A stretch of DNA of 64,000 nucleotides. Source: a phage. The position numbers and the translations under genes were made by a program. Below, one piece after another: positions 7,651 through 63,525 of this stretch. Location of the stretch: sequence record PZ049694.1, one strand, 5' to 3'. The notes under the pieces are model-generated. The model was not told the DNA's origin. It ran no database searches and was given only the letters and a program-made list of their open reading frames with translations. The stretch's first letter is position 1. Every line of letters begins with the position of its first letter.

Positions 7651-8815
7651 CGAAATCTTCCATTTCGTCAAGGTCGTTTTCTATATCTGCTGCAGACGGA
7701 GCATCAGAAGTTTTAACCGGAACTTTAGTTGTTGCTTTGCAATTAATAAGGTCGTTAACAGCATCATCAACTTCTTTAATAGAAGAGATAGCACCTAGTT
7801 TATATTTAGTTTCAATTGCATCTCGGAAAGGTTTGTGTTTAAACAACGGTCCCCAGAATTCTACACAATCAGTAGCTTTAGCACGCCATGATTTTTCTTC
7901 ACGAATCATTTCACCTGTTTCTTCGTCAAGGAATTCTCGAGCATACCAACCAGCTTTAGGCTTAACCACAAAACCGATTTCAGTTGCCATTTCTAACAAG
8001 CCACTGAATGGGTCGATACCACCATCGAAATTAACCGTGATTGGGAAAGTAGATTTCTCTTTAACTGTACGAGATTTTTCTGCTTTCAACGTGAAGTCAT
8101 AACCGGTCAATTCTGTACCTTCTTTAACCTGACGTTTAGAGATAAAGAATACAGTGTTAGCAGAGTAAAGAATACCTGTACCACCACCCATAATCTCTTT
8201 AGGATACAATCCGCCAATTTCCATTGCTGTATGGTTAATTGCAACACACGGAATATCTTTAATAGTCAGATACGGTGTCACAATACGGAAAAGAGATTTA
8301 AGTGCCTTAGCACGAGACATATCACCTACGACTTTCTCGTTCAATGCATCTTCGGTTTCTTTCTTAGATGCAGTATTACCGATTGAATCGATAAAGATAA
8401 TAACTTTATCACCGCGTTCAATAGCGTCAAGCTGATTAGTCATATCAACTTTAAGTTGTTCGACAGATTGAATCGGAGTATGAACTACACGGTCTAAATC
8501 AACACCCATTGAACGAAAATAAGATTCTGAAGCACCAAATTCTGAATCATAGAACAAACAAATTGCATCTTTATATTTCTTCATATATGCTGCAACCATG
8601 GTCAGCCCAAACAACGTTTTAAAGTGTTTAGAAGGAGCAGCAAAAATAGTTAAGCCTGATTGCAACCCGGCATTCAGTGCACCACCTAATGCAATATTCA
8701 ACATCGGAATACGAGTAGGGACTTCATCACGATTATTAAACAGCTTAGACTTAGTCAAGTCTGCAGTCATTTTAGAAGTAGAAGCTTTAATCAGACGAGA
8801 TTTTAAATCAGACAT
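7643..8815 (-). CDS. uvsX: RecA-like recombinase UvsX
   Basis: 390 aa; N-terminus MSDLKSRLIKASTS and core motifs as remembered for T4 UvsX. Confidence 0.9.
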   Translation of the reverse strand: MSDLKSRLIKASTSKMTADLTKSKLFNNRDEVPTRIPMLNIALGGALNAGLQSGLTIFAAPSKHFKTLFGLTMVAAYMKKYKDAICLFYDSEFGASESYFRSMGVDLDRVVHTPIQSVEQLKVDMTNQLDAIERGDKVIIFIDSIGNTASKKETEDALNEKVVGDMSRAKALKSLFRIVTPYLTIKDIPCVAINHTAMEIGGLYPKEIMGGGTGILYSANTVFFISKRQVKEGTELTGYDFTLKAEKSRTVKEKSTFPITVNFDGGIDPFSGLLEMATEIGFVVKPKAGWYAREFLDEETGEMIREEKSWRAKATDCVEFWGPLFKHKPFRDAIETKYKLGAISSIKEVDDAVNDLINCKATTKVPVKTSDAPSAADIENDLDEMEDFDE

Positions 8816-8914
8816 TGTATTTTTCCATAGGCATCATTATATTTTACTCATGTTTAAAAGATAAGACGATTATATACTAAGGGTTATACAGCATTTAAAA
8901 CTTTAAACAGGCTC

Positions 8915-9463
8915 TTAACGAGCCCATTTGATAATTTCTGTAATCAAATAATTACGTTCGCTTGCATTAAATCCTATAACTTTGTTAGCACCGTCATGAT
9001 TAAGTAATTGATACGTTTGGATTTTGTTATGAATTGCAAACTCTTCAAAATATGAAATGACTGTATTAAAACCGAACGAAGACAAAGTAATAAGGTCGTC
9101 TTCAAAACTTTCAGTCATTTCGTTACGTGTTAAAATAATTGTGAACACATCATGGTTTTGGCAAAGACGAACATAATCCTGTTCATAAACGTCAAGAACC
9201 GAGTCCGCATCTTGTCGAATACGTCCATAAACCCAGTTACTAATATATCCACGGTCTAACAGATAAATCTTAGTAGGGTCTAAATAATTCAACATCGTTT
9301 CGAAACAGCCAACTTCATTTCGAGACTTAACATCGAAACGTCCATCAACTGTTCGTTTAGGGAAATCAATCTTTACATATCTTTCACTAATTTCCATTAT
9401 GTCATTAATGAAAGTTGTTTTACCAGCATTATCCGGGCCATCTACTAAAATAATTTTAGCCAT
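8915..9463 (-). CDS. P-loop kinase, thymidylate/dNMP-kinase-like
   Basis: 182 aa; Walker A GPDNAGKTT; LLDRGYISNWVYG resembles the TMP-kinase DRx..S..Y motif. Confidence 0.55.
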   Translation of the reverse strand: MAKIILVDGPDNAGKTTFINDIMEISERYVKIDFPKRTVDGRFDVKSRNEVGCFETMLNYLDPTKIYLLDRGYISNWVYGRIRQDADSVLDVYEQDYVRLCQNHDVFTIILTRNEMTESFEDDLITLSSFGFNTVISYFEEFAIHNKIQTYQLLNHDGANKVIGFNASERNYLITEIIKWAR

Positions 9464-9464
9464 T

Positions 9465-10364
9465 TTATTCCTCGATTACGACATCTTCATATTTAGGTAT
9501 ATTATACGGTGAAGAAATTAAAGCATTAAAGTAGATGAACTCACCAAGACCTGGATGGAATACTTCTTCAGGATTTTCGAAATATTGAATCTTCGGTCTT
9601 CCTTTAAGAATTTGATAGTACTCAGTTTTAGTTGGTTTAAAAATTCGAATCAGTGCTTCTTCAGGATACTTATTTCTGTCGAAGCTATTATTTGGATCGG
9701 TTATATAAAGCGGTTGACCTAATTGAATTGCGCATTCAACCACTTGTTCAAAACGATAACACGGGTCACTAATTCGAAATGGATGAAAAATACCATCTAG
9801 ATGAATAGGGGCCAAATCACCTACAAGACGCTGCATGATGGAAGGACGTATAACTTTCTGCGTTACGATAATCTTATTACCATCTGCACCAGCGTTAACC
9901 AGCACTTCCTTTTGACGTTTATTCAACACAGTAGTTTGAAGTGAACGATTAACCGACAACATATCGGTTTTTAAGAATTCGTCAATATAAAAACGTGGTT
10001 TATTAGGGTCTGCAGTGATATTGAAATTGAATTCCACATCAAAAGCGCCGTCATATCCAGTGATATCTGTGATTAGAAAATCACAATCATAATAAGCAAT
10101 TAATGAATCAACCACAAATTCATTTTCAGACCAGAAATATTTACGAGTGTTATACGCGTTATCTTTATACCATAATGGAACAAACTTAAATTCTGGGAAA
10201 AGACGTTCACATTCTTTAATATCAGATGCATTACGTGGATATGTAATCACATCACCCGGATTAGCACGGTGCAAATGAAGTTGGAAGTTGCCATCCTTAA
10301 GGATAGCATACTGTCCAGTTTCATAAGACCGCATACTCAAGATAGGTACGCGGAAAATAGCCAT
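9465..10364 (-). CDS. hypothetical protein (299 aa), candidate sugar transferase
   Basis: Occupies the slot where T4 has beta-gt; no recognisable motif; start overlaps the 42-like stop (TAATG). Confidence 0.5.
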   Translation of the reverse strand: MAIFRVPILSMRSYETGQYAILKDGNFQLHLHRANPGDVITYPRNASDIKECERLFPEFKFVPLWYKDNAYNTRKYFWSENEFVVDSLIAYYDCDFLITDITGYDGAFDVEFNFNITADPNKPRFYIDEFLKTDMLSVNRSLQTTVLNKRQKEVLVNAGADGNKIIVTQKVIRPSIMQRLVGDLAPIHLDGIFHPFRISDPCYRFEQVVECAIQLGQPLYITDPNNSFDRNKYPEEALIRIFKPTKTEYYQILKGRPKIQYFENPEEVFHPGLGEFIYFNALISSPYNIPKYEDVVIEE

Positions 10365-11080
10365 TAGTCAAGGAATCCTTTAACATAATCAAAATCACGT
10401 TCAAACACATGGGCACTTACCATGGTATGAGTATAATCACCAACTTCTACACCACATTCGTTAGCGATATAATGAAGTAATTTTCCTTGGAGATAAAAAT
10501 CTAACTGCATAACAACAGCACAGTTCTGAGAACGCATATGGCAGTGGGTATAAAGCTTACCATCACGAATATAATAAGTCACTGAGTCAGTACATGGATA
10601 TTCAAGCGTTTCGTCCGAATCAAGCAAAGCCTGATCTGAACTTTCAAGAATTTGAAACACAACTCTTCGTGAATTAGGTTTCTCTTTAAGTTCTTTTAGA
10701 AGAGCTGGTAATTGGGCCGCAATGCGAGGACCATAGAAAGTGTTGAAGTTCGCCGGCAAAACATCTGATTTTGGTTTAGAAATAAATTTAGCGACATTAG
10801 GATATGCCTTAAACGCTTCTTCTGCGTTGGTACCACCAGAAATCATAAACTTCCAGAAGTCTTCGGCATATTCATAAGAGATGCGGTTAATACGTGGGTC
10901 AGTCATTTTGAATGATGACGGAGTGTCAACAACTACTGTCATAGACCCAATTTCATTACAACGTCCAATACGAGAATCAGTTACGAATTCCGGGTTTTCT
11001 AAAATTTCACGATTGACTGCTTTAAATGCGGTTTGAAAATCTGCGGCTTTGATATATTTCATTGTGTTATGTTTTCCCAT
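10364..11080 (-). CDS. 42: dCMP hydroxymethylase-like enzyme (thymidylate synthase family)
   Basis: 238 aa; TS-family active-site region EYPCTDSVTYYIRDGKLYTHCHMRSQN; divergent from remembered T4 gp42. Confidence 0.7.
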   Translation of the reverse strand: MGKHNTMKYIKAADFQTAFKAVNREILENPEFVTDSRIGRCNEIGSMTVVVDTPSSFKMTDPRINRISYEYAEDFWKFMISGGTNAEEAFKAYPNVAKFISKPKSDVLPANFNTFYGPRIAAQLPALLKELKEKPNSRRVVFQILESSDQALLDSDETLEYPCTDSVTYYIRDGKLYTHCHMRSQNCAVVMQLDFYLQGKLLHYIANECGVEVGDYTHTMVSAHVFERDFDYVKGFLD

Positions 11081-11359
11081 GTTTACCTCAATACAATTTA
11101 TTATATACTCAATTCGTAAAGCTTATTTGAATTTCTTGACAATGTTGATATAACGTAAAGCTTCAGCATCGATACTTCCAAGAACACTATGAAGAAATGC
11201 ATCAGCGTAGTATTCCAATTGAACAGGTTTCTTTAATCACTTTAGCCGCTTTAGTTTCAAACAGGCCCATCAGGGCCTTTTTAAGAATTTGTTCATTAGT
11301 GTTCAGTTTCATAGTCAAAATCTCTTCATTAAGTTGGTGGTTAAAAGTTTTTCTAGAAA

Positions 11360-12520
11360 TCATTCCGGGTACCTCAAAGCGTCATCAGAGTTAGTTATAT
11401 CAATAATAGATATAGAGTTTTCTGCTAACCCGTTTTTAGATAATTGACGTTTATAATATCTTTCACAATATGTACACGTCGTCCCGCAGATTTCATTAGC
11501 ACAATCGAAATCTGGATGTCTGAACCACCTTTTTTCTAAAAAGCCATCTAACAAAGAGGTTTCAATATTTACTGTATGTGAAAACTCTGTCTCATTTTCA
11601 AGAGTGAAAATGGTCTCTAAAGGCTTCCACAGTTCTAACAAATTACCTTCAAACTTTTCAGAAGCGTATGCTTCAAGAACTTTCAAAATGTAGTCTGTGC
11701 TACCTGTACGTCCTGAAACTTTGAATTGAGTGATACCAATATCATTATAAAGTTTCAAATCTTGAGGACGAACAAAACGAGTTCTCAACCAGTTAAATGG
11801 ATCTGTATCACGAGCTTTAATACAATGTTGCATTGGATATCCATTTAAAGATTTGGCATCATCTACTGTAACATCGGTGCTATGGAAAATATAGCAAGAG
11901 TCACGATAACTACAATGTGTTGTATACCCTTTACCAGCATTAGAACAGAACTCATTTACAAGAACTTCAAATATTATATTGTTCTTATTACAAAACTCTG
12001 CTGCACGCTTCAGGAAAGAAACTGAACGGTTTTTATGAATTCCGCAGCAGACCTTTTTGATATTATATTGGTCATGCAAGTATTTGATTTGAGTTACAGC
12101 ATCGACATGTAGAATTGTTGAAACTTCAATCTCAATGTCTTTATTGACTTCACGAACAATTTCCATAACAACAGGGTTAGCGATAGTAATACGCCATACG
12201 CCTATTGACCAAAGATACTGAACATAATCCTGAATAGCTTTCTTCTTCCACTCAACTAGTTCTCTTTTTGAACCAGGATTTATCGTGTTGAGTGTATAGT
12301 TAAAGCAAATACCTAATTCGTTACAACGTTTAACGTAATCTTCTAACATCTTTTTGTCAACGTCAGGAAGCCTAAAATCAGGTCTGGCTGCTACAAAAGC
12401 CATTTCTCTTGTAGAGCCGTATACTTCATTTATCAAGCTATTAGGATAAGTTTTATTGAGCTCTACGATTTTATCAAGAAGAGCTAAATCAAAATTCGTT
12501 CCGATTTTAAAAGTATTCAT
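11360..12520 (-). CDS. Cys-rich enzyme of unknown function (386 aa)
   Basis: 13 or more Cys; C-terminal CANEICGTTCTYCERYY contains a C-x3-C-x2-C pattern; possible Fe-S or metal site. Confidence 0.5.
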   Translation of the reverse strand: MNTFKIGTNFDLALLDKIVELNKTYPNSLINEVYGSTREMAFVAARPDFRLPDVDKKMLEDYVKRCNELGICFNYTLNTINPGSKRELVEWKKKAIQDYVQYLWSIGVWRITIANPVVMEIVREVNKDIEIEVSTILHVDAVTQIKYLHDQYNIKKVCCGIHKNRSVSFLKRAAEFCNKNNIIFEVLVNEFCSNAGKGYTTHCSYRDSCYIFHSTDVTVDDAKSLNGYPMQHCIKARDTDPFNWLRTRFVRPQDLKLYNDIGITQFKVSGRTGSTDYILKVLEAYASEKFEGNLLELWKPLETIFTLENETEFSHTVNIETSLLDGFLEKRWFRHPDFDCANEICGTTCTYCERYYKRQLSKNGLAENSISIIDITNSDDALRYPE

Positions 12521-12577
12521 TTTTTTACATCTCGCGTTAATTGATGCGATGGTTTTTTGCAGGTCTTACTTAAATTA

Positions 12578-12979
12578 TTATAGATTCGGTTTATATGATT
12601 TAAATGTTTCGAATTCGCCTTTATTCATAAGAGCTTTGAATTCGTCAGGACGCATAGCTTTGTCGTCGATAATCCAATCATATACTGGTTTATGTGTTAG
12701 CAAATTATGGTACTTCAAGCCAATGTTTGCCAAGTTCTGAATCAGACTTGGGAGAATGTCAATTGCTATACGACCAGGACCTACTGACTTCATACCGCGA
12801 GCAGTGTAAAGCGTTATTGTATGCCCTGCATCATACAGGGCATTAATGGCAGACACCATTTCGACGTCTGGTTTGAAGTTCACGTAATCACGATTGTTAT
12901 TCCACTCTGTTATACAATCATCGACATCAAAACAAAGATTAAGCATGTTTTCTACACGGTGCATTAGATTCGTTCCCAT
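12578..12979 (-). CDS. HAD-superfamily phosphatase (small, 133 aa)
   Basis: Motif I FDVDDCIT (DxDxT); overlaps the upstream gene by 16 nt. Confidence 0.65.
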   Translation of the reverse strand: MGTNLMHRVENMLNLCFDVDDCITEWNNNRDYVNFKPDVEMVSAINALYDAGHTITLYTARGMKSVGPGRIAIDILPSLIQNLANIGLKYHNLLTHKPVYDWIIDDKAMRPDEFKALMNKGEFETFKSYKPNL

Positions 12980-14649
12980 TGATGAGTGATATCGCCACCG
13001 ATTGGACGATAAGAAACACCAGTTTCTTTATCAGTTAGTACCCATTTACCAGGATTTTTTGTAATCAGAGTAGCCGTTACAGGTTCTGCTACGTCATAAC
13101 TAATAGAGCCGTCTTGAAGTACACGGCCCATGTTACGTAATTGTTTAGTCAGAAGTTCCATACCTTTATAATATGCGGCTACCGCTTTAAGTGGATTATT
13201 CTTGAAATAACCACCTAATGCAATCCAGATAATTGCAACTGCCAAATGATGATACTCGTTAAACGAACTCATCTTTCCATATTTGTAAACTAATGGATTG
13301 ATGTTAATAGTCACATTACAAGTTGTTTCATCAATAGTAAACTGTCCCCAGGTCGGATTAGCGTTGAATTCATCATACCCTGAAACAGCATAAAGCACTT
13401 TAGCTTCGTCATACAATTTTGGTCCGTAAATCTTGGTTTCGCCAAAATATCCACGAGGGTCGATAAACTTGACTTCGCCATTATCAGTAATCATAGTATT
13501 ACTGAAGTTCGGGTCACCATGAATAACAGAGTACTGTCCCTGAGAACGGTTATGATAACGAATAAGGTGTTCTAAAGCTTGTTTCAGCATTGGCTTCAGA
13601 CGCCCAATCTTAGTGTAGTTCACATGTGTGATTTTACCAAATGAATCAATCAATGGTTGAATACTTTCACAACGATCAATAACTTTCGTATAGAACTCTT
13701 TAGTGAAATCACGACGAACAGTTTCAGGACTTACAAAATAAGTGTCTGTGCTGAATTTCAGTGCATCTAAAATTGCATCAACAATTTGTGGACGAGCAAG
13801 ACTTGATTTGGATTTAATATATTCAAATGCCGGCTTACCTTTAATGCGTTCCATTTCAAAGTTATTTTCATTAACAGAAACTAACTGAGGAACTGAATCT
13901 GATTTCACTTTAAGATACCATGAAATCTCATCTTTCTGAAGAGCTCGACCCTGTTCGGTTAATGCGAATTTAGTTACAGTTTCTTCACCGATTTCAACTG
14001 CATTAAAACTACGATTAAGTTCACGAACTTCATGAGCTTTTTCAAGTTTAGGCATATCACCTAAATCAATTAGATTCATAAGCTCTGATTTATTGAATGC
14101 ACCGCTGTAAAGGAATTCTACGAAATCACGTCCTTTGCAGTATTCATGAATTTCCTCATCAGTAGAACCCATATAGAATTCCCAGTCTTTGAACTGATAA
14201 ATTCCTACAACATTACCACCTGTTGAACCTACGTTAGTGATATTTTCACCGTCGAAATTATATCGACATTCGTCGCCCTTAACATAGATTGCGTTAACAT
14301 TCCAAGACCATGAACCAAAATCGGGAATAATATCACACCAGTTAACAATTACATTATGGCCGTTTAAATCTTTGTGTAATTTAGCAAGAGCATAAGCAGA
14401 ACCATACGCTTCATCAACTGTACGAATAGTCACATTGAACCCTTCTTGCTCACAATAAGCTCGAACAGTTTCAGCAAATTTTGAATGAACTACTACAATA
14501 ATTTCGTCTGCGCCAAGGTCAGAATAAATTGTATACAAATTGCTCAGAATAGTGTCTTGTTTATAGTTAACAAGCACCTTAGGAATATGATGCGTTATTG
14601 GATACAAACGAGTTGCCAGTCCAGCACCAAGAATAACAGCTTTTTTCAT
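12964..14649 (-). CDS. bifunctional sugar-1-phosphate nucleotidyltransferase / APH-type kinase
   Basis: N-terminal ILGAGLATRL (GxGxR of NDP-sugar pyrophosphorylases such as LicC, MurU, RmlA); C-terminal VIHGDPNFSN Brenner motif and FIDPRG (APH/choline-kinase fold). Confidence 0.75.
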   Translation of the reverse strand: MKKAVILGAGLATRLYPITHHIPKVLVNYKQDTILSNLYTIYSDLGADEIIVVVHSKFAETVRAYCEQEGFNVTIRTVDEAYGSAYALAKLHKDLNGHNVIVNWCDIIPDFGSWSWNVNAIYVKGDECRYNFDGENITNVGSTGGNVVGIYQFKDWEFYMGSTDEEIHEYCKGRDFVEFLYSGAFNKSELMNLIDLGDMPKLEKAHEVRELNRSFNAVEIGEETVTKFALTEQGRALQKDEISWYLKVKSDSVPQLVSVNENNFEMERIKGKPAFEYIKSKSSLARPQIVDAILDALKFSTDTYFVSPETVRRDFTKEFYTKVIDRCESIQPLIDSFGKITHVNYTKIGRLKPMLKQALEHLIRYHNRSQGQYSVIHGDPNFSNTMITDNGEVKFIDPRGYFGETKIYGPKLYDEAKVLYAVSGYDEFNANPTWGQFTIDETTCNVTININPLVYKYGKMSSFNEYHHLAVAIIWIALGGYFKNNPLKAVAAYYKGMELLTKQLRNMGRVLQDGSISYDVAEPVTATLITKNPGKWVLTDKETGVSYRPIGGDITHQWERI

Positions 14650-14690
14650 GTTGTGGTCCTCATTGGTAAGTAGGAGTATTGTACACTATT

Positions 14691-14834
14691 CTAGTTAAAG
14701 CATTCATACTTTGCTTGTAGTCCAATCATAATCCATCCAATTACAAGTGTCGGAATCATTACTGGAGCCGTTAAGCTCCAGTAGATAGTCATGACAAGCA
14801 TCAATAGTAAAAGTCCTATTGTTATTGCTTTCAT
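14691..14834 (-). CDS. small hydrophobic protein (47 aa)
   Basis: MKAITIGLLLLMLVMTIYWSLTAPVMIPTLVIGWIMIGLQAKYECFN; ATG overlaps the SIS gene stop (ATGA); below track cutoff. Confidence 0.35.
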   Translation of the reverse strand: MKAITIGLLLLMLVMTIYWSLTAPVMIPTLVIGWIMIGLQAKYECFN

Positions 14835-15466
14835 TGTTCGCCTCGTAACATGGCACCTAGTGCACCGCCAGGGTGGAACTTAAGGAAGTCATTAGAGGTA
14901 AATCCACGTTCAGACGAAAGGTTGATAGCAAACGTATCGATAAGCGCTAACAACAATGTAGTGGACATGGTCGGAGCCAGAGAATTCTCATCGACCTCTA
15001 CCGCGATGCCTGTACAGAAAGAGTAATCAAAAAGGGCTTCATTTTCTTGTGGAATGTCTGGGTTACAATGCAACAGAATTTGTTTGACGTTCGGACGAAT
15101 CATTTTAAGATGCTTAGCCACGCCTATCATTTCTTCAGTTTTACCAGAACGACTAATATGAATCAACACATCATTAGGCGCAATGAATCCTGCATCACCG
15201 TGAGAATAATGCCCAGTGTTCAAGTACATACTCGGGATACCGAGTGAAGCAAATGTCTCAGAAGCTTTAGTTGCAATATTAGCATTCTTACCAACACCTG
15301 TAATAATTACTCGGCTTTCATAATTACTAAGTCCCGGACGTCGAAGAGTTTCTAGAATAGCATTATAACGAGCAGGGTTTTGACTAATTACTTTGGCCAT
15401 AGCGGCCAAAGAAGAAGCTTGTTTTATGATTGCGTCAATAGCGATAGTAATAGGAGTAGTTTTCAT
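14831..15466 (-). CDS. SIS-domain sugar-phosphate isomerase, arabinose-5-phosphate isomerase-like (no CBS domains)
   Basis: 211 aa; SIS motif ITGVGKNANIA; C-terminal FLKFHPGGALG matches the KdsD/GutQ/KpsF signature. Confidence 0.7.
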   Translation of the reverse strand: MKTTPITIAIDAIIKQASSLAAMAKVISQNPARYNAILETLRRPGLSNYESRVIITGVGKNANIATKASETFASLGIPSMYLNTGHYSHGDAGFIAPNDVLIHISRSGKTEEMIGVAKHLKMIRPNVKQILLHCNPDIPQENEALFDYSFCTGIAVEVDENSLAPTMSTTLLLALIDTFAINLSSERGFTSNDFLKFHPGGALGAMLRGEQ

Positions 15467-15506
15467 ATTTCTCTCATTTAATTAGTTTACCGTCCATGTC
15501 ATTATA

Positions 15507-18218
15507 TCAAAAATCGAACATATCGAATAGAGATGCTTTCTTCTCGTAATCGAGTTTCGCTGCTGATGTGAATCCTTCAAGTGGTTTAATAAATGTCTTC
15601 TCAAGGAGAACAGTGTAGTCCATCCAATGAAGTACGTCGTCTTTAATTAAATCTGTGATTTCAGTACCAGAAGGCCATGCGATACATTTATCACCGAATG
15701 GGTTTCCTTCACGTAAAGGCAGAACATATACTTTTTCACCTTCTACAACTTGCGGCGCATCGATATTACCTTTGATAGCACGGTTATACGTCAGAATTCC
15801 ACGAATATGGAACGGGCATTTGGGACCAGGGAATCCACCTACATCATATTTAGCAATGTTATTCGCAGAAGATACCGACGCGATGCTAATATAATTCAAT
15901 TGACGGAATTCTTTTTCAAACTCTTTAAAATATTCTTGTAATGATTCTTCACCTTCTTGAAGCATACGACGAATACATTCTTTAAGAGCTTTCTGTACTG
16001 CTTTAGGAGTCGAAGATTTCTGCGTTTCAAGACCCATGATTTTAAGCTTAGGTTCAGCGTATCTGGTTCCTTCCATATCCCACACGTTTAATGCATAACG
16101 TTTCTTACCAGTCCAGAATCCACCAATACCTTTAGAACCGAGCGGAGGACCAGCGATAGCTTCTCGGTCCATGAACATTAAGTGTTGTTTATTGTTCATG
16201 TATTCACACATTTCACGGAAACCTCTATCAATAGCTGGTTCCATACGTTCACGAGCGAACTTATCTAAGAAGTCTACCCAATGGTTGGTATCACGGAATT
16301 TAGATTCACCAACCTTATCGATAATTTTATCAGCAGATACGTAAATAGAGTCTGTATCACCATAAAGAACGAAAGCTTCACCTTCTGTACCACAAACTTC
16401 GTTCAGATATTCATTAACTTTACGTTCAATCCACTGTAAAGCCATTTGCCCGAATGTTGTGATTGCAGTAGCATTACGCAAATCATAATAACGAAACCAA
16501 ACGTTGCCAAGTGCACCATAAAGTGAGTTGATAAGCAATTTACGGTTAATTTGGGCAGTCATACCTGCAACTTCAGTACGTTGAGCTCTAAACAACATTT
16601 CATTAAGAGATTTAGCAGACAACTTTTTAATCTTTTCTTTAATCTCATCGCTGAAGTCGAAACGATAATCAACATCTAATGGTTCGTCAACAGAAAGATT
16701 AGGATTATGCAATGCCTCTTTAATTATTTCGCCATTACGTTGAGCCGCAAGCATATAACCTTTATGTTCTTTACGTTGATTAAAGACTTTAGTGATTTCA
16801 GTTGGAACAACACCATCACGGTCTTTATAATACATCATGCCGTTAGGAGAACAACTGTACACATCAGAAGGACGTTCAGCGATTGCGTTAATATAATCAT
16901 GCAATGGAGCTACTTTAAACGTTCCTGCTATTGTTTCTGGGCTAATATTCACTTGGCGAATAATACTTGGATACAGAGATGTAAGGTCGAAACTCATTAC
17001 ATATTTGTATCGATTTGGAATAGGTTCCTTAACAAAAGCGCCAGGATAAGGTTGAACCGGGTGAGAACGACCTTGTGGAATCACCTTGTTCTGCTCTTTA
17101 AGGCTATTAAAAATAATAGCATCCCATGTTTTAATTGGGCTAAACACAGATTGAATCTGTATCTTAGCATAATAACCCATGTCCAAACTCAAGTTGATGA
17201 ACTGACGCTTAGCATCAATTTGCAATACACGATACACGTCGATAATGTTATAAGAAATATATCGTTGGTGATTGCTTTCACGAAGCTTAGAAATAGGGCC
17301 GTCATATTTCAGTTTACCAACGTTCAATTCAAATTCTGAAATGTAATCCAGAGAATATGATGGTTGGTTAGTAAAAGAGAATTTTTTGTAAAGGTCAATG
17401 TAATCAAGAACAGAGATACCGAACAATGTAATGATTTCACGAGAACCATACATGTTTTCGATAACTTTAACACGAGTTTTACGATGTGGTGATAAACGTT
17501 TCGCAGTAGATTCGCCAAAAATATTCTTGATTCGGTTATACACATATGGAATATCAAATGACTCAACGTTCCATCCAGTCAAAATGACAGGAGTTTTCTG
17601 TTGCCAGAAGTTGAGATATTCCATCAACAATTCTTTTTCGTTATCGAACGGCATATAAATGATTTTATCGATAATTTCGGATGGAACTTCATCACCACCT
17701 TGTTCTTGAAGCTTAGCCGCAATTTCGATAGACCATTCTTCTACATTACCATATGGAGAATTCAATAGATCAAATACGTAGAACCTGTCGTCAATTGAGT
17801 CATAATGGGTGATAGCATCAATTGGATGTTTTGCTTGTGACGGCTCAGGGAACCCGTCAGGAGATGTTACTTCGATGTCGAAGTTAGCCACACGAATTTT
17901 TGTATGGTCGTATTTGATTTCATAGTTATAAGTGTCAGACAAATACGCCAATTTGAAATCGTCCATGCCAAGTGCTTCAAGTCCGATATCTTCCATGCGT
18001 TTAATCCATTGGGAGGCATCACGCATATTAGCGAACAACTTACGAGTACACGGCTTACCGTAGATATCGAAATATTTCGTAGCCTGACTTTCTGGACAAT
18101 GAGCAAACAGTGATGGTTTATATTCTACTTCACGAGTACGTTCACGGCCATTAGAATCGATGTAACGTTCAAAAATTGAATCACCAATCTGTTCAACCGT
18201 TAAGTAAAATTCTTTCAT
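15507..18218 (-). CDS. 43: DNA polymerase gp43 (family B)
   Basis: 903 aa; exo motif FDIE; polymerase motif LYGDTDS; N-terminus as remembered for T4 gp43. Confidence 0.95.
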   Translation of the reverse strand: MKEFYLTVEQIGDSIFERYIDSNGRERTREVEYKPSLFAHCPESQATKYFDIYGKPCTRKLFANMRDASQWIKRMEDIGLEALGMDDFKLAYLSDTYNYEIKYDHTKIRVANFDIEVTSPDGFPEPSQAKHPIDAITHYDSIDDRFYVFDLLNSPYGNVEEWSIEIAAKLQEQGGDEVPSEIIDKIIYMPFDNEKELLMEYLNFWQQKTPVILTGWNVESFDIPYVYNRIKNIFGESTAKRLSPHRKTRVKVIENMYGSREIITLFGISVLDYIDLYKKFSFTNQPSYSLDYISEFELNVGKLKYDGPISKLRESNHQRYISYNIIDVYRVLQIDAKRQFINLSLDMGYYAKIQIQSVFSPIKTWDAIIFNSLKEQNKVIPQGRSHPVQPYPGAFVKEPIPNRYKYVMSFDLTSLYPSIIRQVNISPETIAGTFKVAPLHDYINAIAERPSDVYSCSPNGMMYYKDRDGVVPTEITKVFNQRKEHKGYMLAAQRNGEIIKEALHNPNLSVDEPLDVDYRFDFSDEIKEKIKKLSAKSLNEMLFRAQRTEVAGMTAQINRKLLINSLYGALGNVWFRYYDLRNATAITTFGQMALQWIERKVNEYLNEVCGTEGEAFVLYGDTDSIYVSADKIIDKVGESKFRDTNHWVDFLDKFARERMEPAIDRGFREMCEYMNNKQHLMFMDREAIAGPPLGSKGIGGFWTGKKRYALNVWDMEGTRYAEPKLKIMGLETQKSSTPKAVQKALKECIRRMLQEGEESLQEYFKEFEKEFRQLNYISIASVSSANNIAKYDVGGFPGPKCPFHIRGILTYNRAIKGNIDAPQVVEGEKVYVLPLREGNPFGDKCIAWPSGTEITDLIKDDVLHWMDYTVLLEKTFIKPLEGFTSAAKLDYEKKASLFDMFDF

Positions 18219-23843: not shown

Positions 23844-24859
23844 TGTGTTGCCTCAATATAAAGTTCGTTGGAATATTTGACCAGCGCTTCTCTGTCTTCG
23901 TCTGAGATATCTGGAATCGCGTCAATATATTCTTTAATGATATCTTGAAGTGATTTAATCTCGATTTCCTGGTCGTCATCAGATTCAACACTGTTATCAA
24001 CTTTAGAAACCATACGAAGAGAGTGAACTACTTTTTCAAGTTCAGATTCAAACTTAGTCAACTCTGAATCAATTTCTGATACTATAACACGTACGGCTAG
24101 ATTAGTATAATCAGAATAATTGATTTTGCCTTTAAACGGATAAGTGATTCGTCGATGCCATGTTGTTTCATTAGGAATAAATTCCATACGTTCAACATCA
24201 GTGTCAAATACCCAGAATCCGCGCGGGTCGTTTTCATCACCTGCAGTAAGGGTCCATGGTGTCCCAATATATTTAACGTTAGCAGCTTCAGAGATTGTGT
24301 GGAAGTGGCCGGACCAGACTTGTTTATAGGTCTTTAAGAAATCAGGTTCAAGCCCATGAGACTTCATTCCTTTATAGAAATAAAAGCCGTTCAGTTCCCA
24401 GTGACCAACACAATACGCGGCAGAAGAAGTTTTGATGTGCTCTAAGATTTCACCTGTATTTTCTTCACACATCCATGGAACGATATCAATCAGACATCCG
24501 TCAAAATCTACAGTAGTTGGATGCTCGTAAATAGTAAAGTTTTCAAATTGAGTTAACAATTCAGAAACAGTGTTAGGTGTTATTGTATTCTTGAACGCCA
24601 TGTCATGGTTTCCTATCGTGACATGAACGTGAATGCCTGCTTTAGAAATCATATCAACGATTTCACGATTGAATTCCATTGTACGATGTGTTATTGCTTT
24701 ACGGACGTCAAACCAATCACCGTACTGAATCCAAGTTTTAATCCCGTGTTTCTTAGAGTATTCAATTGCTTGACGAATACCATCACGTTGAATATCTTGA
24801 ACCCATGGGTCGTCTTGTTTGACTCCGATATGGAAGTCGCCTAAGTGCAAAATTTTCAT
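23840..24859 (-). CDS. 47: recombination endonuclease subunit gp47 (Mre11/SbcD-like)
   Basis: 339 aa; calcineurin-like phosphoesterase motifs LHLGDFH, GNHD, GHWE. Confidence 0.9.
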   Translation of the reverse strand: MKILHLGDFHIGVKQDDPWVQDIQRDGIRQAIEYSKKHGIKTWIQYGDWFDVRKAITHRTMEFNREIVDMISKAGIHVHVTIGNHDMAFKNTITPNTVSELLTQFENFTIYEHPTTVDFDGCLIDIVPWMCEENTGEILEHIKTSSAAYCVGHWELNGFYFYKGMKSHGLEPDFLKTYKQVWSGHFHTISEAANVKYIGTPWTLTAGDENDPRGFWVFDTDVERMEFIPNETTWHRRITYPFKGKINYSDYTNLAVRVIVSEIDSELTKFESELEKVVHSLRMVSKVDNSVESDDDQEIEIKSLQDIIKEYIDAIPDISDEDREALVKYSNELYIEATQ

Positions 24860-24903
24860 ATTATTTCCTCATTAGTTAATTCATTCTATCATCCGTTTAT
24901 AAA

Positions 24904-24931
24904 GCAAAAAAAGGAACTCCGAAGAGTTCCT
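24904..24931 (-). terminator. rho-independent terminator
   Basis: ggaactc-cgaa-gagttcc hairpin (UUCG loop on minus RNA) followed on the minus strand by U7. Confidence 0.65.
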
Positions 24932-25103
24932 ATCCACATAGTACACCGTACAGAGGCTCATTTGAACTTTTAAATCGAATGGGCTTGTATGTAATAGTTC
25001 CTTCGGCTTTAGCTTTATCATAAGACTCTTTAAAACGTCTCATTCTTTCTGCTTTGCCTTTACGGATTTTATCGAAATTTTCAGAGGTCAGGTCGTTCGT
25101 CAT
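24930..25103 (-). CDS. small hypothetical protein (57 aa)
   Basis: ORF MTNDLTSENFDKIRKGKAERMRRFKESYDKAKAEG... with GAGGTG SD; stop abuts the terminator; below track cutoff. Confidence 0.35.
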   Translation of the reverse strand: MTNDLTSENFDKIRKGKAERMRRFKESYDKAKAEGTITYKPIRFKSSNEPLYGVLCG

Positions 25104-25142
25104 GCATAATCACCTCTCAGAAAATACCTAAATCGATTTCTC

Positions 25143-25364
25143 TCATCGTTTCCACCATTTCTTAACTTGAAATGAATCAACCCACACGAGTTGTTTTGGG
25201 TCGGCCTTTACAATAGGCGGACAAATTTCTGTAATAGAACCGTCGTGATATTCCTTTTCAGAAATTTTAACACAAAGAGGACCTCCCAATTTAAGGGTGA
25301 ACCCTGCGTTCAGCTTCAGACGTTTAAACTTTGTTTGAACTAGCGCCATTAATGATGTCCTCAA
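25143..25364 (-). CDS. hypothetical protein (73 aa)
   Basis: Minus-strand ORF; start may be internal. Confidence 0.4.
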   Translation of the reverse strand: MRTSLMALVQTKFKRLKLNAGFTLKLGGPLCVKISEKEYHDGSITEICPPIVKADPKQLVWVDSFQVKKWWKR

Positions 25365-25647
25365 TAGCCTGACGAGTAGTAACCCACTGGATTTTAATTA
25401 ACTTGTCATTATATGGTTGTCGTAGAATATCCCGAGATTTCTTAATAGCATATTCGTAAGCTTCGAAGTTGTTTTGAATTGCTGCTTCTTGAGCGTGAGC
25501 ATAAAGACGGTTTAGTTCAAAACGATTCTTTTTAAGAATCTTTTCGGATTTTTTACGTGCTTCAGCTTCATTTTTCTTTTGGATTTCTTGTAGCATTTTA
25601 GCTACTGCATCTTCTGCTTCTTTATTTTCAATAATCTCGGTAGTCAT
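25324..25647 (-). CDS. hypothetical protein (107 aa), coiled-coil rich
   Basis: Minus-strand ORF in the 47-to-55 interval where T4 carries alpha-gt. Confidence 0.5.
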   Translation of the reverse strand: MTTEIIENKEAEDAVAKMLQEIQKKNEAEARKKSEKILKKNRFELNRLYAHAQEAAIQNNFEAYEYAIKKSRDILRQPYNDKLIKIQWVTTRQAIEDIINGASSNKV

Positions 25648-25648
25648 A

Positions 25649-25864
25649 TTATCTCATTAAATTAAAATAAAAACGTCCATCCTCTTCAATACAGAACTCA
25701 TACTCAACCGGAGTCCCATTTATCGAAAATGACACGTCATGTGGGTTCAAAGGGTCGATGTCAAAATTAATTTTAAATTCACGACCCAACAGTTTTACCA
25801 AATAAGGGATTGCTTCGTCAAAAGGTTCTTCTAAGTAGTTAGAGATGTCAATTGTCATCCTCAT
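25649..25864 (-). CDS. hypothetical protein (about 71 aa)
   Basis: Track ORF 25649-25942 trimmed to an internal ATG clear of gene 55. Confidence 0.4.
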
Positions 25865-26405
25865 ATAAAAAATCCAAACTAGGCGAATCGCTAACAACTT
25901 CCTTCTTTTCAGCCCCAGGAGCTTTATAAGCGGATTCTTCATAATGCGTCATTTTATCGTAGATGTCTTGAATAAACGTTTCATCTACCAACGCTACCAT
26001 ATCATCGTCATGACTGTCGTAGACATTATGAACGAAGTAACTATATTTCTTTGCAACTTCCTTACGTTCTTTTTTGATACGTTGGACAAAAGCATTAAAA
26101 CAAGCTCGAGTTATGTATGCATGTGGGTTATTGTACTTAGTTTCGTCGAAATTATGAAGTCCCTTAATAGAGGCTTCAATCCCATCTGCAATCATCTCCT
26201 GCTTCCAAGACTGGGTATATCCTGAAAAGTTGAAACGTTTGGACAGGCCTTCGGCGATAAGCATAATTGCTAAACCGATGGTATCATTCTGACGAATAAT
26301 TTTGTTTGGGTCTTTATTATTTAAGAGCTCCTTTTTCCACTCGATTATAGCGGCGAGAAGCTCTTTATTATTCACATAGTTATTTTTAGGTTTTTGTCCA
26401 GTCAT
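25848..26405 (-). CDS. 55: late-transcription sigma factor gp55
   Basis: 185 aa; [49 protein letters not shown] near-identical to remembered T4 gp55. Confidence 0.92.
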
Positions 26406-26477
26406 AAGTACCTCTTAGCTCAATTCATAGGTCTATTATATCATAATATTTGGAGACCTATCTTAAAGCACGAGATA

Positions 26478-26747
26478 CTATCGGAGCAAACAATAAGCCT
26501 GAAACACTTTTTCCATTAAACGTTTGAACTCATGGATATCGATATAAAGCTCAGTAAGACCGGCATTATAAAGAAAATCTAAAAAGTTCTCATGAGTTTC
26601 GTTATAGTCGCCTTCGTTTAATTGAGATACATGAGTTTCCCAAAAACCAACACCTTTAACGAATGGAAAATACGTGACTTTCATGTATTCGTCAACATAA
26701 AATTCGCCCAGCTTTTCTTCAGTTATACTGATTCGAGTTAATTTCAT
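26478..26747 (-). CDS. hypothetical protein (89 aa)
   Basis: Minus-strand ORF, translationally coupled chain. Confidence 0.5.
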   Translation of the reverse strand: MKLTRISITEEKLGEFYVDEYMKVTYFPFVKGVGFWETHVSQLNEGDYNETHENFLDFLYNAGLTELYIDIHEFKRLMEKVFQAYCLLR

Positions 26748-26971
26748 TCTAGTTCCTTTGCTGCTTCAAGAGCATCATCCAACGAATCAAATTGGTCAAC
26801 GAAATCGATATTCAACGCATCGTCAGCCGTAGCATATAGCCACCATTGTTTGAATTCATATTCTAGGATAAATCCAAGCCCTTCAATCTGAGAAAGACCT
26901 AGGCTATTTGTACCAACTTCGTAACCAGCTAGACGCAGGTCATTAATCAAAGATTCTGTTAATACGCTCAT
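26744..26971 (-). CDS. hypothetical protein (75 aa)
   Basis: Minus-strand ORF, 4-nt overlap with neighbour. Confidence 0.5.
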   Translation of the reverse strand: MSVLTESLINDLRLAGYEVGTNSLGLSQIEGLGFILEYEFKQWWLYATADDALNIDFVDQFDSLDDALEAAKELE

Positions 26972-27300
26972 TTTACCGCCTTAACAATTTTCAGGTCAAC
27001 GAATTTTTTCTTACGTTGATTTTTCATACGACGGATAGTCTTTTCAGAGATTTCATGTTTCTGATAAGCTTTAGATTCAACACCAAATGCAGCAACGTCA
27101 AATTCAGAAAGAATATATTGTACTAGAATTTCACGAATAGAATTACGTCCAATTTTCTGGTCGTGTTTTTGCATGATTTCATAAAGACGGAATTCCCACG
27201 CGTCAAGGACTTGAGGAGTAACAATATTGCCGGATTCCAGAAGAGCAACAACTTTATCGAAAGCGAAAGAATTAACTACGTTTTTGATTTTAGTAGACAT
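26968..27300 (-). CDS. hypothetical protein (110 aa)
   Basis: Track start 27369 lies inside the promoter cassette; internal ATG at 27300 has SD GAGGAAA. Confidence 0.5.
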   Translation of the reverse strand: MSTKIKNVVNSFAFDKVVALLESGNIVTPQVLDAWEFRLYEIMQKHDQKIGRNSIREILVQYILSEFDVAAFGVESKAYQKHEISEKTIRRMKNQRKKKFVDLKIVKAVK

Positions 27301-27319
27301 ATTATTTTCCTCGGTTATT

Positions 27320-27368
27320 TTATTATCCAATGAGAGAGCATTATACTCTGCTCTCAAGAGTTTGTGCA
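27320..27368 (-). repeat. 47-bp promoter/stem-loop cassette, copy 1
   Basis: ttattatccaatgagagagcattatactctgctctcaagagtttgt; near-identical to 57498-57543; -10 TATAAT on minus strand inside inverted repeat gagagca...tgctctc. Confidence 0.65.
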
Positions 27369-27608
27369 TTATTCCGTGATAAGATAATGTAAATAGTTTG
27401 CTTGACGAACACTGATATCAACACCCATATCAAAGATACCTTTATAGAACGGGTATTTGTTTTCAGTAGAATCTAGACTAAAAGCCTTTCCACCACAACT
27501 AACGGTAATAGCATCAGTTAAAGTGTCATATACAAACTTAATAGTTGAGCCATTCACTACGACTTCAAGACGTTTTTTCGATGTAATAATGTCTAATTCT
27601 TGTTCCAT
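27369..27608 (-). CDS. hypothetical protein (79 aa)
   Basis: Minus-strand ORF. Confidence 0.5.
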   Translation of the reverse strand: MEQELDIITSKKRLEVVVNGSTIKFVYDTLTDAITVSCGGKAFSLDSTENKYPFYKGIFDMGVDISVRQANYLHYLITE

Positions 27609-27671
27609 GATATTTTCCTCATTTTAAGACGATAGGAAGATAATAACATGTCTTCCTATCGTTGTATATTA

Positions 27672-27884
27672 TTAACCGAACTTTTTAGCGCCTTTCCAGC
27701 CTTCGTACATAGTTGCGCAAGTCAATAGCACAGCATGTTGACATTCTTTGTATTTGTAAATCCAGAACCAACGTAAAAAGTCTTCATCCTCAACACCGTT
27801 GAGTTTCATATTGGCAAAGAATTCGGCACGTTCTTCACGAAGTTGCCATGACACAATATTTTCAGGATTCATTTTGTGTTCCAC
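27672..27884 (-). CDS. hypothetical protein (70 aa)
   Basis: Minus-strand ORF. Confidence 0.45.
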   Translation of the reverse strand: MEHKMNPENIVSWQLREERAEFFANMKLNGVEDEDFLRWFWIYKYKECQHAVLLTCATMYEGWKGAKKFG

Positions 27885-28096
27885 GCCCCATTTTCATCGA
27901 TGAACTTAATCCAGTCATTTACAGACCATTTAGTTGTATCACCCTTTGGATTAGCATTTAAAGTATATAATCCCTGCTTAAAAAGCATTCGTTTGATGTT
28001 CATAATTTCCTCAACTGTAACGATAACATTCGTTAGCTTTACGTTTGGCTTCAGTATGAGAAGTATTATAATCATAATCTTCTTTACTGTAAACAT
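27869..28096 (-). CDS. hypothetical protein (75 aa), hydrophobic N-terminus
   Basis: Overlaps the 28011-28331 ORF; true start uncertain. Confidence 0.4.
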   Translation of the reverse strand: MFTVKKIMIIILLILKPNVKLTNVIVTVEEIMNIKRMLFKQGLYTLNANPKGDTTKWSVNDWIKFIDENGAWNTK

Positions 28097-28331
28097 CTTT
28101 TTTCAACTTACGAACTTCTTTGCGGAGTTGTCGATTCATTTCGTTCTTGACTTCGGAATCAACGCCTTTCATACGTTTCCATTTATCTGAGCGGAAAATG
28201 TTTTCAACCATGTCTTTGTGGCTAACACCGTCAGGAGCTTTACGTTTACCAAAATAGTCATAATCACGAACTTTCAAATCTTTACGACGATACGTTTTAC
28301 CCATAAGTACCTCAGAGGTTGATTGATACAA
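28011..28331 (-). CDS. hypothetical basic protein (106 aa)
   Basis: Lys/Arg-rich minus-strand ORF. Confidence 0.45.
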   Translation of the reverse strand: MYQSTSEVLMGKTYRRKDLKVRDYDYFGKRKAPDGVSHKDMVENIFRSDKWKRMKGVDSEVKNEMNRQLRKEVRKLKKDVYSKEDYDYNTSHTEAKRKANECYRYS

Positions 28332-28560
28332 TACGTTTGATAAAATTCACTTCACTTACTGAAAGGTCTTTAAGACCGATTGATTCTAAACGCTGAGTAA
28401 GAGTCAACATTGGGATATAGTCCCATTGTGTTTTAGACGTTTGATAAGTACGGACGCCATTAGCAATTTCAACATGCAAATCTGAAATGGTAACGAATAC
28501 TAGACGCTCATCATTAACTTTAAGGGTTAGAACAACTTTCTTTGAATCTAAACTAATCAT
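28312..28560 (-). CDS. hypothetical protein (82 aa)
   Basis: Minus-strand ORF. Confidence 0.45.
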   Translation of the reverse strand: MISLDSKKVVLTLKVNDERLVFVTISDLHVEIANGVRTYQTSKTQWDYIPMLTLTQRLESIGLKDLSVSEVNFIKRIVSINL

Positions 28561-28901
28561 GGCTTAATTTCCTTAGCAATTGAACAGAAGATACCACGGT
28601 CACAAAGCATTTCACCAATTTCTGGATATTTGATTGAACGGTACCAAACATCCAGGCTTGAAACTCTGGTTATCTGTACTGCATTACCGTTGACAGAATA
28701 GTACTGGTCGACCTTAATTTCTTTATCTTCAATTGTCATTTTATTTTCCTCTATAGTAGATGGTTTAATCTTAACACATCTATTGAGGATGTAAACTGTT
28801 TTATGAAAATATTTTTTGATTTGAGAGTGGCACAAGGAGATAGTGAAGTGAAGATTCCAATGGATTATATTAGAAATGAGATAAAGAAGACCAGGCGGCA
28901 C
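28557..28901 (-). CDS. hypothetical protein (114 aa)
   Basis: Minus-strand ORF. Confidence 0.45.
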   Translation of the reverse strand: MPPGLLYLISNIIHWNLHFTISLCHSQIKKYFHKTVYILNRCVKIKPSTIEENKMTIEDKEIKVDQYYSVNGNAVQITRVSSLDVWYRSIKYPEIGEMLCDRGIFCSIAKEIKP

Positions 28902-28905
28902 CTGG

Positions 28906-29512: not shown

Positions 29513-29514
29513 AA

Positions 29515-29730: not shown

Positions 29731-29840
29731 ATTTACCCTTAATTAACTAAGCATTGATAAACACCAAACTATACTGCGAATAAAATTCTGGACCAAAACG
29801 AAAAATCATATCATTTATAGTATCCATAATGTAATTCAAT

Positions 29841-63472: not shown

Positions 63473-63525
63473 AGGTTTTCCTCATATAATTTATGAGTGA
63501 TTATAACATACGGAGCTAGAAGCGA

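Follow-up and report, generated by a model that had tools for sequence, protein, structure and literature searches.

A phage-associated clade of U32 proteins, present in the arabinosyl-5-hydroxycytosine cluster of an RB69-like phage, as candidate prephenate-dependent hydroxylases of DNA precursors

The 64,000-nucleotide stretch of phage DNA analyzed here in its full length (sequence record PZ049694.1; hereafter the window) comes from an RB69-like Mosigvirus and encodes on its minus strand a 299-aa protein (9465-10364) and a 386-aa protein (11360-12520), both open reading frames (ORFs) having been confirmed at these positions. A preliminary description, made from the sequence letters, had presented the two as unassigned proteins standing in for the glucosyltransferases of T-even phages. 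We found that the region is instead the core of a cluster for arabinosyl-5-hydroxycytosine (ara-5hoC) DNA modification, not of a glucosyl-hydroxymethylcytosine (glucosyl-hmC) pathway, and that the cluster has already been published (PMC13326640, NAR 2026). Our main result concerns the 386-aa protein, the counterpart of RB69 gp50. It belongs to a distinct phage-associated clade of the U32 family, whose gene neighborhoods point to a hydroxylation of DNA precursors that depends on prephenate and not on oxygen, which would bring a new class of substrates to a known type of enzyme. Specifically, and on a slight balance of probability, we propose that gp50 is a prephenate-dependent, O2-independent C5-hydroxylase of a deoxypyrimidine nucleotide, most likely deoxycytidine monophosphate (dCMP), with the substrate, the oxygen donor and the independence from oxygen all inferred. 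What is new here is the alternation of ThyA-type and U32 genes beside homologs of the 299-aa protein (GT299) across viral contigs, and the association of chorismate mutase with U32.

The 386-aa protein matches Pfam Peptidase_U32 above the curated cut-off and has the U32 TIM-barrel fold. The U32 proteins of defined function are RlhA, which forms 5-hydroxycytidine (ho5C) at C2501 of 23S rRNA, TrhP, which forms 5-hydroxyuridine (ho5U) in tRNA, and UbiU/V, all of which carry out, or are required for, O2-independent, prephenate-dependent hydroxylations (PMC10990095, PMC5727448), with prephenate demonstrated to be the oxygen donor in the case of UbiU/V (PMC10990095). The article describing the cluster mentions neither prephenate nor chorismate nor U32 (PMC13326640).

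To survey the gene neighborhoods we used loci from IMG/VR (47 U32 and 51 GT299), scored with iterated hidden Markov models (HMMs), with contig statistics covering 10 kb on either side of the gene and carrying no correction for phylogeny. Chorismate mutase (Pfam CM_2), or a DAHP_synth_1::CM_2 fusion, occurred in 23 of the 40 U32 contigs and in none of the 32 contigs with ThyA only (Fisher p = 2e-8, phylogeny uncorrected), and in 41 of 42 loci it lay no more than 700 bp from the U32 gene. Among cultured phages, the 79-aa gene between the U32 gene and the ThyA homolog of Enterobacter phage Entb_45 is a chorismate mutase (CM_2, E 2.4e-10), which tblastn located in 56 phage records from more than a dozen host genera, always between these same two genes; in distant viral contigs U32 is directly flanked by chorismate mutase, either stand-alone or as a DAHP-synthase::chorismate mutase fusion. 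All 22 distinct phage chorismate mutase domains retain the catalytic residues of the E. coli enzyme (R11, R28, K39, S84 and Q88). Prephenate is the product of chorismate mutase, and DAHP synthase is the first committed enzyme of the shikimate pathway. Because chorismate mutase thus makes the oxygen donor of U32 hydroxylases, its position beside U32 leads us to infer that gp50 is a prephenate-dependent hydroxylase. No chorismate mutase was found in the window, so that an RB69-like phage would need prephenate from its host.

The fusions of DAHP synthase to chorismate mutase beside U32 were seen on large viral contigs (up to 199 kb, G+C content 0.22-0.38), at L039 8399-9430, L041 3-968, L042 7290-8354, L043 8323-9384 and L053 11076-12194, with DAHP synthase alone at L010 9145-9891. 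Such phage-encoded shikimate-pathway enzymes presumably boost the supply of prephenate.

The distribution of U32 relative to the ThyA-type hydroxylase gene provides a second line of evidence. Among 60 de-duplicated viral contigs with at least 3 kb on either side of a GT299 homolog, 22 carried only a ThyA-type gene, 22 only U32, 16 both, and none lacked both. Typical cassettes read ThyA-GT-kinase; kinase-GT-U32, with overlapping genes; GT-SIS-NTPkinase-kinase-DAHPS::CM-U32; and U32-CM-GT-NTPkinase, where GT denotes the glycosyltransferase and CM chorismate mutase. Even lenient searches, with E. coli ThyA and a gp48 HMM, recovered ThyA-like genes in only 2 of 32 distant U32 contigs, one of them a canonical thymidylate synthase. 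In two minimal cassettes the Pfam-annotated neighbors comprised replication genes, dUTPase/DCD, further DNA glycosyltransferases (TAGT-like, Gly_transf_sug) and UDP-galactopyranose mutase, with no other recognizable hydroxylase among them. Further U32 contexts include dCMP deaminase-U32, U32-NT5C...dNK, and thymidylate kinase and UDG genes.

Host range follows a related pattern. In cultured phages, 222 records have a U32 match, all at least 80% identical, and the genera named belong to the Enterobacterales or are Shewanella; these are facultative anaerobes. Acinetobacter is not among the genera listed for U32, and 57 Acinetobacter phage records carry GT299 together with ThyA, as Pseudomonas phage PspYZU05 carries ThyA-GT-kinase without U32. 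Species-representative genomes with the U32 clade include metagenome-assembled and other genomes labelled Erysipelotrichales, Oscillospiraceae, Gastranaerophilaceae, Romboutsia, Tannerella and Phocaeicola faecalis, among others, largely obligate anaerobes, and their U32 loci hold chorismate mutase, kinase and GT cassettes without ThyA. G+C content is 0.22-0.40 in U32-only contigs and reaches 0.57 in ThyA-only contigs. Taken together, the chorismate mutase link, the alternation with ThyA and this ecology tie gp50 to prephenate chemistry and to the base hydroxyl. While the preliminary description had proposed both proteins for the transfer step or further tailoring, that role suits the 299-aa protein, a predicted arabinosyltransferase, whereas comparative genomics places gp50 probably upstream of transfer, where it would be an alternative source of the base hydroxyl on which the transferase depends.

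The pattern does not amount to a rule by which every phage of a host able to grow anaerobically carries U32, which is ruled out by the Dhakaviruses of E. coli. In Dhakavirus-like contigs (L069-L073 and L078) we observed NTP-kinase, HAD, kinase, ThyA and GT299 genes, with no U32, chorismate mutase or SIS isomerase within 10 kb on either side.

The cysteines of the 386-aa protein are in keeping with an iron-sulfur (Fe-S) enzyme. It has 13 Cys and, as first described, is Cys-rich with a C-terminal C-x3-C-x2-C cluster, to which one further upstream Cys can be added, giving C340-x4-C345-x3-C349-x2-C352; these four are invariant in 121 close homologs and kept in 121-123 of 130 distant representatives (93-95%), whose median identity to gp50 is 31%. 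A second set lies in the U32 domain, where C192, C203 and C233 occur in 129-130 of the same 130 representatives, while at position 209 75 of them have Cys and 54 His. C192, C203, C209 and C233 fall in the segment homologous to the [4Fe-4S] ligand region of UbiU, TrhP and RlhA, and are plausible candidates for Fe-S ligands. The ligands of UbiU have been determined experimentally as C169, C176, C193 and C232 (CX6CX16CX38C), the pattern in TrhP and RlhA being CX6CX15CX3C (PMC6747719), and RlhA additionally requires extra C-terminal Cys (PMC5727448). With two conserved four-ligand Cys sets, gp50 is very probably Fe-S dependent, with two predicted clusters. The earlier expectation that one of the proteins might depend on a metal or an Fe-S cluster thereby holds as a prediction for the 386-aa protein, but its extension to radical SAM does not, as the protein has no PF04055 match and its fold is U32.

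Within the family, the gp50 proteins form a compact separate clade (483 clusters at 50% identity, E<=1e-30, among 1.84 billion representatives). A profile of the 386-aa family aligned with E. coli RlhA by hhalign at 82% probability (E 1e-5, 205 columns), the best match among the E. coli paralogs, while hhalign against single sequences of TrhP and UbiU gave probabilities of 11% and 6%, too weak to use. The protein scores 19.4 bits against the UbiU equivalog NF047963 of NCBIfam, whose cut-off is 440. It has no match to DUF3656 and so falls outside the RlhA subfamily, at 386 aa rather than 653 aa and with its own C-terminal CX4CX3CX2C.

These observations suggest a scheme in which the Fe-S cluster or clusters of gp50 would oxidize a deoxynucleotide, probably dCMP, at its pyrimidine ring, and prephenate would give the oxygen at C5, yielding 5-hydroxy-dCMP. 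The ThyA homolog gp48 reaches this same product with flavin and O2 and would thus represent an aerobic route beside an anaerobic gp50 route, in a layout that would mirror TrhO/TrhP and UbiH,F,I/UbiU,V in the host. RB69-like phages would probably draw prephenate from host PheA/TyrA. The 5-hydroxy-dCMP would then be phosphorylated and its 5-OH arabinosylated by the 299-aa GT-B enzyme, with UDP-arabinofuranose (UDP-Araf) supplied by gp55, gp52:53 and gp51.

Several points weigh against this proposal. The gp50 Cys spacing, CX10CX5CX23C, departs from the canonical CX6CX15CX3/4C, and MAFFT and hhalign pair its Cys differently with the reference ligands; the C-terminal four-Cys set could bind zinc instead of an Fe-S cluster. 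Dhakaviruses infect E. coli with ThyA-GT-kinase and no U32, and Escherichia phage records with GT299 and ThyA number 177 against 137 with U32. As the contig view extends 10 kb to each side, a ThyA homolog could sit elsewhere on contigs counted as U32-only, and the counts ignore phylogeny. Nor is gp50 essential aerobically, gp48 and a deoxynucleoside monophosphate (dNMP) kinase sufficing in E. coli (PMC13326640). Reconstitution in vitro has not yet been achieved for any U32 hydroxylase (PMC10990095). In the literature covered we found no biochemical or genetic evidence on gp50; He et al. 2026 (Nat Chem Biol) and Mahler et al. 2025 (Cell Host Microbe) lay outside that coverage and may assign or exclude roles for gp50 and GT299, while the papers citing them mention no role for a U32 protein.

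The published description of the cluster labels gp50 a "sugar or heterocycle reductase", in Table 1 only and with no further mention in the text (PMC13326640). That it is such a reductase, or tailors the sugar in some other way within the arabinose branch, would agree with the position of its gene between the base-modifying and the UDP-arabinose genes, and some U32 loci also contain an epimerase or a gene of the DAHP/KDO8P-synthase family. However, the label is never discussed, the minimal kinase-GT-U32 cassettes lack sugar-nucleotide genes, and no reductase is known from the U32 family; the DAHP_synth_1 genes occur as fusions with chorismate mutase, which identifies them as DAHP synthases. 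Since U32 also accompanies GLF/UDP-galactofuranose systems and a methyltransferase module, its conserved role appears independent of the sugar, and we consider the reductase reading improbable.

We regard as very improbable that gp50 hydroxylates RNA (phage or host tRNA U34, or rRNA C2501) in the manner of TrhP and RlhA and is merely co-located with DNA-modification genes. RNA does supply the only known pyrimidine substrates of U32 proteins (PMC5727448, PMC6599085), and of the E. coli paralogs RlhA matches the profile best, but gp50 lacks RlhA's DUF3656 and belongs to a separate compact clade, which is tightly operonic with GT299, kinase and chorismate mutase in many unrelated phages, alternates with the ThyA-type 5-hydroxy-dCMP (5hodCMP) synthase and has deoxynucleotide enzymes as neighbors. 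Hardly credible, finally, is a genuine collagenase-like U32 peptidase or a radical-SAM enzyme using the C-terminal CX3CX2C. The former has the database names "peptidase" and "collagenase-like protease" in its favor, against which stand the nucleotide-metabolism context and a U32 peptidase mechanism that has never been defined (PMC5727448). For the latter, the spacing C345-x3-C349-x2-C352 does equal the radical-SAM motif, but there is no Radical_SAM Pfam match, the motif sits at 345-352, after the barrel and not in its first loop, a fourth conserved Cys (C340) accompanies it, and the best folds are U32 and CutC.

The locus itself is closely related to known genomes. Positions 8800-15600 share 97.9-98.6% DNA identity with RB69 and many other Mosigvirus genomes, the RB69 counterpart being 23933-30732 (97.9% identical, gene order shared), and all real genes in this interval lie on the minus strand. 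The gene order in this part of the window is gp41, gp40, UvsX, the 182-aa kinase-like protein, the 299-aa protein, the 238-aa ThyA homolog, a small ORF, the 386-aa protein, HAD phosphatase, the 561-aa nucleotidyltransferase/kinase, SIS isomerase and DNA polymerase. The genes of the modification cluster are as follows.

8915-9463, minus strand: 182-aa thymidylate-kinase-like nucleotide kinase (RB69 gp45), directly downstream of the GT299 gene; PHROG 761 thymidylate kinase, E 5.8e-45.
9465-10364, minus strand: 299-aa GT-B glycosyltransferase (RB69 gp46:47), predicted base-proximal 5-hydroxycytosine O-arabinosyltransferase.
10364-11080, minus strand: 238-aa ThyA homolog (RB69 gp48), flavin- and O2-dependent 5-hydroxy-dCMP synthase; Pfam Thymidylat_synt, E 2.3e-15.
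11202-11363, minus strand: truncated RB69 ORF049c homolog, 53 aa (79 aa in RB69).
11360-12520, minus strand: 386-aa U32-family protein, predicted Fe-S (RB69 gp50), proposed prephenate-dependent, O2-independent pyrimidine C5-hydroxylase.
12578-12979, minus strand: 133-aa HAD-type phosphatase (RB69 gp51, AfhF-like), UDP-arabinose pathway; PHROG 1238 (PMC13326640).
12964-14649, minus strand: 561-aa bifunctional nucleotidyltransferase/kinase (RB69 gp52:53, AfhE-like), UDP-arabinose pathway; Pfam NTP_transferase E 8e-10 and kinase-like C-terminal matches (PMC13326640).
14831-15466, minus strand: 211-aa SIS-domain arabinose-5-phosphate isomerase (RB69 gp55); Pfam SIS E 1e-10, PHROG 5670 arabinose 5-phosphate isomerase E 4e-116.

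Part of the pathway encoded here is already known. RB69 DNA was first reported to contain arabosyl-hmC (PMC6024577), a view corrected in 2026 to 5-hydroxycytosine in mono- and di-arabinosylated form, an ether bond joining the sugar to C5; the acceptor base and the sugar of the preliminary description, hmC and glucose, accordingly give way to 5-hydroxycytosine and arabinose (PMC13326640). RB69 gp48 binds flavin and makes 5-hydroxy-dCMP with oxygen taken from O2, as 18O2 labelling demonstrated, and RB69 dNMP kinase gp159 phosphorylates 5hodCMP; in aerobic E. coli, gp48 and the dNMP kinase are enough to place 5-hydroxydeoxycytidine in DNA (PMC13326640). The 238-aa protein of the window is nearly identical to PDB 9iqc/9ir2 (E 8e-161). 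Separately, a canonical T4 gp1-type dNMP kinase (Pfam DNMK, E 1.5e-96) lies on the minus strand at 62741-63481; the phage thus has two nucleotide kinases, this one and the gp45-type enzyme beside GT299.

Turning to the 299-aa protein, gene orders show that it does occupy the position of T4 beta-gt, the T4 order being uvsX-segA-beta-gt-42-imm-43 and that of the window uvsX-kinase-299aa-(gene 42 homolog). The reported lack of glucosyltransferase homologs also holds at sequence level, since T4 alpha-gt and beta-gt queries (phmmer, tblastn and blastp) and a GT299 family HMM gave nothing in the window better than E=0.5 and no Pfam match; by contrast, T4 gp42 as query matches 10391-11002 at E=1e-10. 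Sequence searches of the PDB with single sequences and family profiles of both proteins returned nothing meaningful, and the folds emerged only from fold comparison. In that comparison the 299-aa protein proved to be GT-B, with two Rossmann-like domains, its list comprising sucrose-phosphate synthase (17.5), BshA (16.8), PimA (16.0), the solved glycosyltransferase of phage HY126 (14.2) and T4 alpha-GT (13.0). It is the ortholog and syntenic counterpart of RB69 ORF046c+047c ("arabinosyltransferase 1"), beside the 5hodCMP synthase gene. To speak of the two proteins as unassigned is correct for the older GenBank record of RB69, where both products are hypothetical, but newer records and PMC13326640 name them glycosyltransferase (299-aa) and peptidase (386-aa). 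The RB69 GenBank record (AY303349; L001 3665-4565 and 7162-8848) also splits ORF046c/047c and ORF052c/053c, both of which are intact in the window. In NRG-P0074 (L002 7117-9548), a homing endonuclease gene lies between the HAD and the nucleotidyltransferase/kinase genes, the latter being labelled "dCMP deaminase".

We consider it likely, as already proposed in the literature, that the 299-aa protein is the base-proximal transferase, predicted to move the first arabinofuranose from UDP-Araf onto the 5-OH of 5-hydroxycytosine. In cultured phages, GT299 and ThyA counts are identical for each host genus (Escherichia 177, Acinetobacter 57, Klebsiella 26, Shigella 15). The main competing possibility is that it is a UDP-pentose pyrophosphorylase making the sugar donor, with another protein such as gp3 as DNA transferase. 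Thanatos TH1_063, 47% identical, indeed formed UDP-xylose from UTP and xylose-1-P in vitro while transferring nothing to DNA, dCMP or dCTP, and was reported as a pyrophosphorylase (PMC12838424), and DLP3 gp79 alone was inactive on 5hoC-DNA with UDP-Ara (PMC13326640); both results count against a transferase. The formation of UDP-xylose nevertheless implies that the GT299 family binds a UDP-pentose, and the acceptors of the Thanatos study all lacked a 5-OH (PMC12838424). Moreover, the fold is GT-B and not that of a nucleotidyltransferase, the cluster already has an AfhE-homologous nucleotidyltransferase/kinase, GT299 homologs are always near a base hydroxylase gene, and the mono-arabinosylated Thanatos phage has a single arabinosyltransferase, syntenic with gp46:47 (PMC13326640). 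A pyrophosphorylase is therefore improbable. As the transferase has already been anticipated, this assignment adds little alone.

A gp45-type kinase adjoins GT299 homologs (gap of at most 150 bp) in 62 of 91 loci and is fused to GT299 in 5. The fusions, single ORFs of about 600 aa from at least 2-3 lineages, were observed at L037 2591-4408, L046 5237-7054, L052 5318-7003, L058 5237-7054 and L119 9130-10707. Such fusion and adjacency hint at attachment of the first sugar to the mononucleotide, a question that PMC13326640 leaves open.

The small ORF between the ThyA homolog and the U32 gene deserves separate mention. In the window the ORF049c homolog (11124-11363, minus strand) has one extra A in an A-run near 11210 relative to RB69 and NRG-P0074 (AAAGAAACC versus AAAGAACC), causing a frameshift and a stop at 53 aa instead of 79. 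The insertion occurred in none of 126 fetched loci and the intact version in 4; the extra A reflects either an error in sequencing or a mutation private to this genome. We also considered RB69 ORF049c as a diverged chorismate mutase and rejected this, given that it has no Pfam or BLAST similarity to phage chorismate mutases and coexists with a true one in several phages. Scanning 8700-15700 for promoters and terminators gave results no better than shuffled sequence.

Some of the surveyed cassettes combine U32 with other decorations. At L013 6495-14179 and L036 7575-16284 we observed a Gly_transf_sug GT, kinase, GT299, U32, TAGT-like GT, dUTPase/DCD and UDP-galactopyranose mutase. Their gene content resembles a system for hypermodification with galactofuranose, attached to a hydroxyl that U32 would make; Rhizobium phage RL38J1 offers an analogous case, but here a ThyA homolog is missing. 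A bacterial-looking module at L126 3044-7137 (Phocaeicola faecalis scaffold 17) and L008 5135-9098 comprises GP88, a guanylate-kinase::SAM-methyltransferase fusion, a ~265-aa protein and a gp50-clade U32, followed in L008 by NT5C, an NMN transporter, dNK, a radical SAM/SPASM protein, a second U32-like protein and a nucleoside deoxyribosyltransferase; it may represent a pathway that hydroxylates and then methylates a nucleotide.

Combining these results, we tentatively sketch a wider model, which on present evidence we think unlikely. In it, gp50-clade U32 proteins would be the first prephenate-dependent hydroxylases acting on DNA precursors and the sole source of 5-hydroxypyrimidine in many phages of anaerobes, some of which bring DAHP synthase::chorismate mutase; the first decoration (arabinose, galactofuranose or another sugar through GT299, or methyl through kinase::methyltransferase) would be added to the mononucleotide before polymerization by a kinase-coupled, sometimes fused, transferase. 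If gp50 is a prephenate-dependent dCMP 5-hydroxylase, hypermodified DNA in gut phages would be explained without oxygen, which the only demonstrated 5hodCMP synthase needs, and U32/prephenate hydroxylation would reach beyond RNA and quinones to DNA precursors. Being small and made of one subunit, and having a substrate that is soluble and sold commercially, the enzyme could permit the first in vitro U32 hydroxylation, not achieved so far (PMC10990095). A gp50-clade U32 with a GT299-type or methyl-transferase and a kinase, optionally with chorismate mutase, would then be a signature by which to find new hydroxypyrimidine DNA modifications in metagenomes.

Compared with known systems, gp50 most resembles RlhA (YdcP) in its U32 domain, in candidate Cys ligands placed in the same segment and in further conserved C-terminal Cys; the product of RlhA is 5-hydroxycytosine, the base of RB69 DNA, and its activity needs prephenate and Fe-S biogenesis (PMC5727448). 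It differs in length, in lacking DUF3656, in Cys spacing, in its separate clade and in being phage-encoded, with a proposed substrate of deoxynucleotide or DNA rather than rRNA. With TrhP (YegQ) and UbiU/UbiV it shares the U32 family, and each of these has an O2-dependent counterpart (TrhO; UbiH/F/I), as gp48 would be to gp50 (PMC6747719, PMC10990095, PMC6599085), but similarity to them is weak, gp50 is a single protein and not a heterodimer, and it has the extra C-terminal four-Cys set. Like gp48, DLP3 gp80 and the HY126 hydroxylase, gp50 is proposed to yield 5-hydroxy-dCMP from the same cassette position beside the GT299-kinase pair; unlike gp48, it is a U32 TIM barrel and not a thymidylate synthase fold, and it is proposed to use Fe-S and prephenate in place of flavin and O2. 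The 299-aa protein, with its predicted transferase activity, corresponds to RB69 gp46:47, DLP3 gp79 and Thanatos TH1_063, in an ORF that is intact here and split in the RB69 GenBank record. From the T4 alpha- and beta-glucosyltransferases it is set apart by the absence of detectable sequence homology, by arabinofuranose in place of glucose, and by an acceptor that is 5-hydroxycytosine (ether at C5) instead of hydroxymethylcytosine and may be a mononucleotide rather than DNA.

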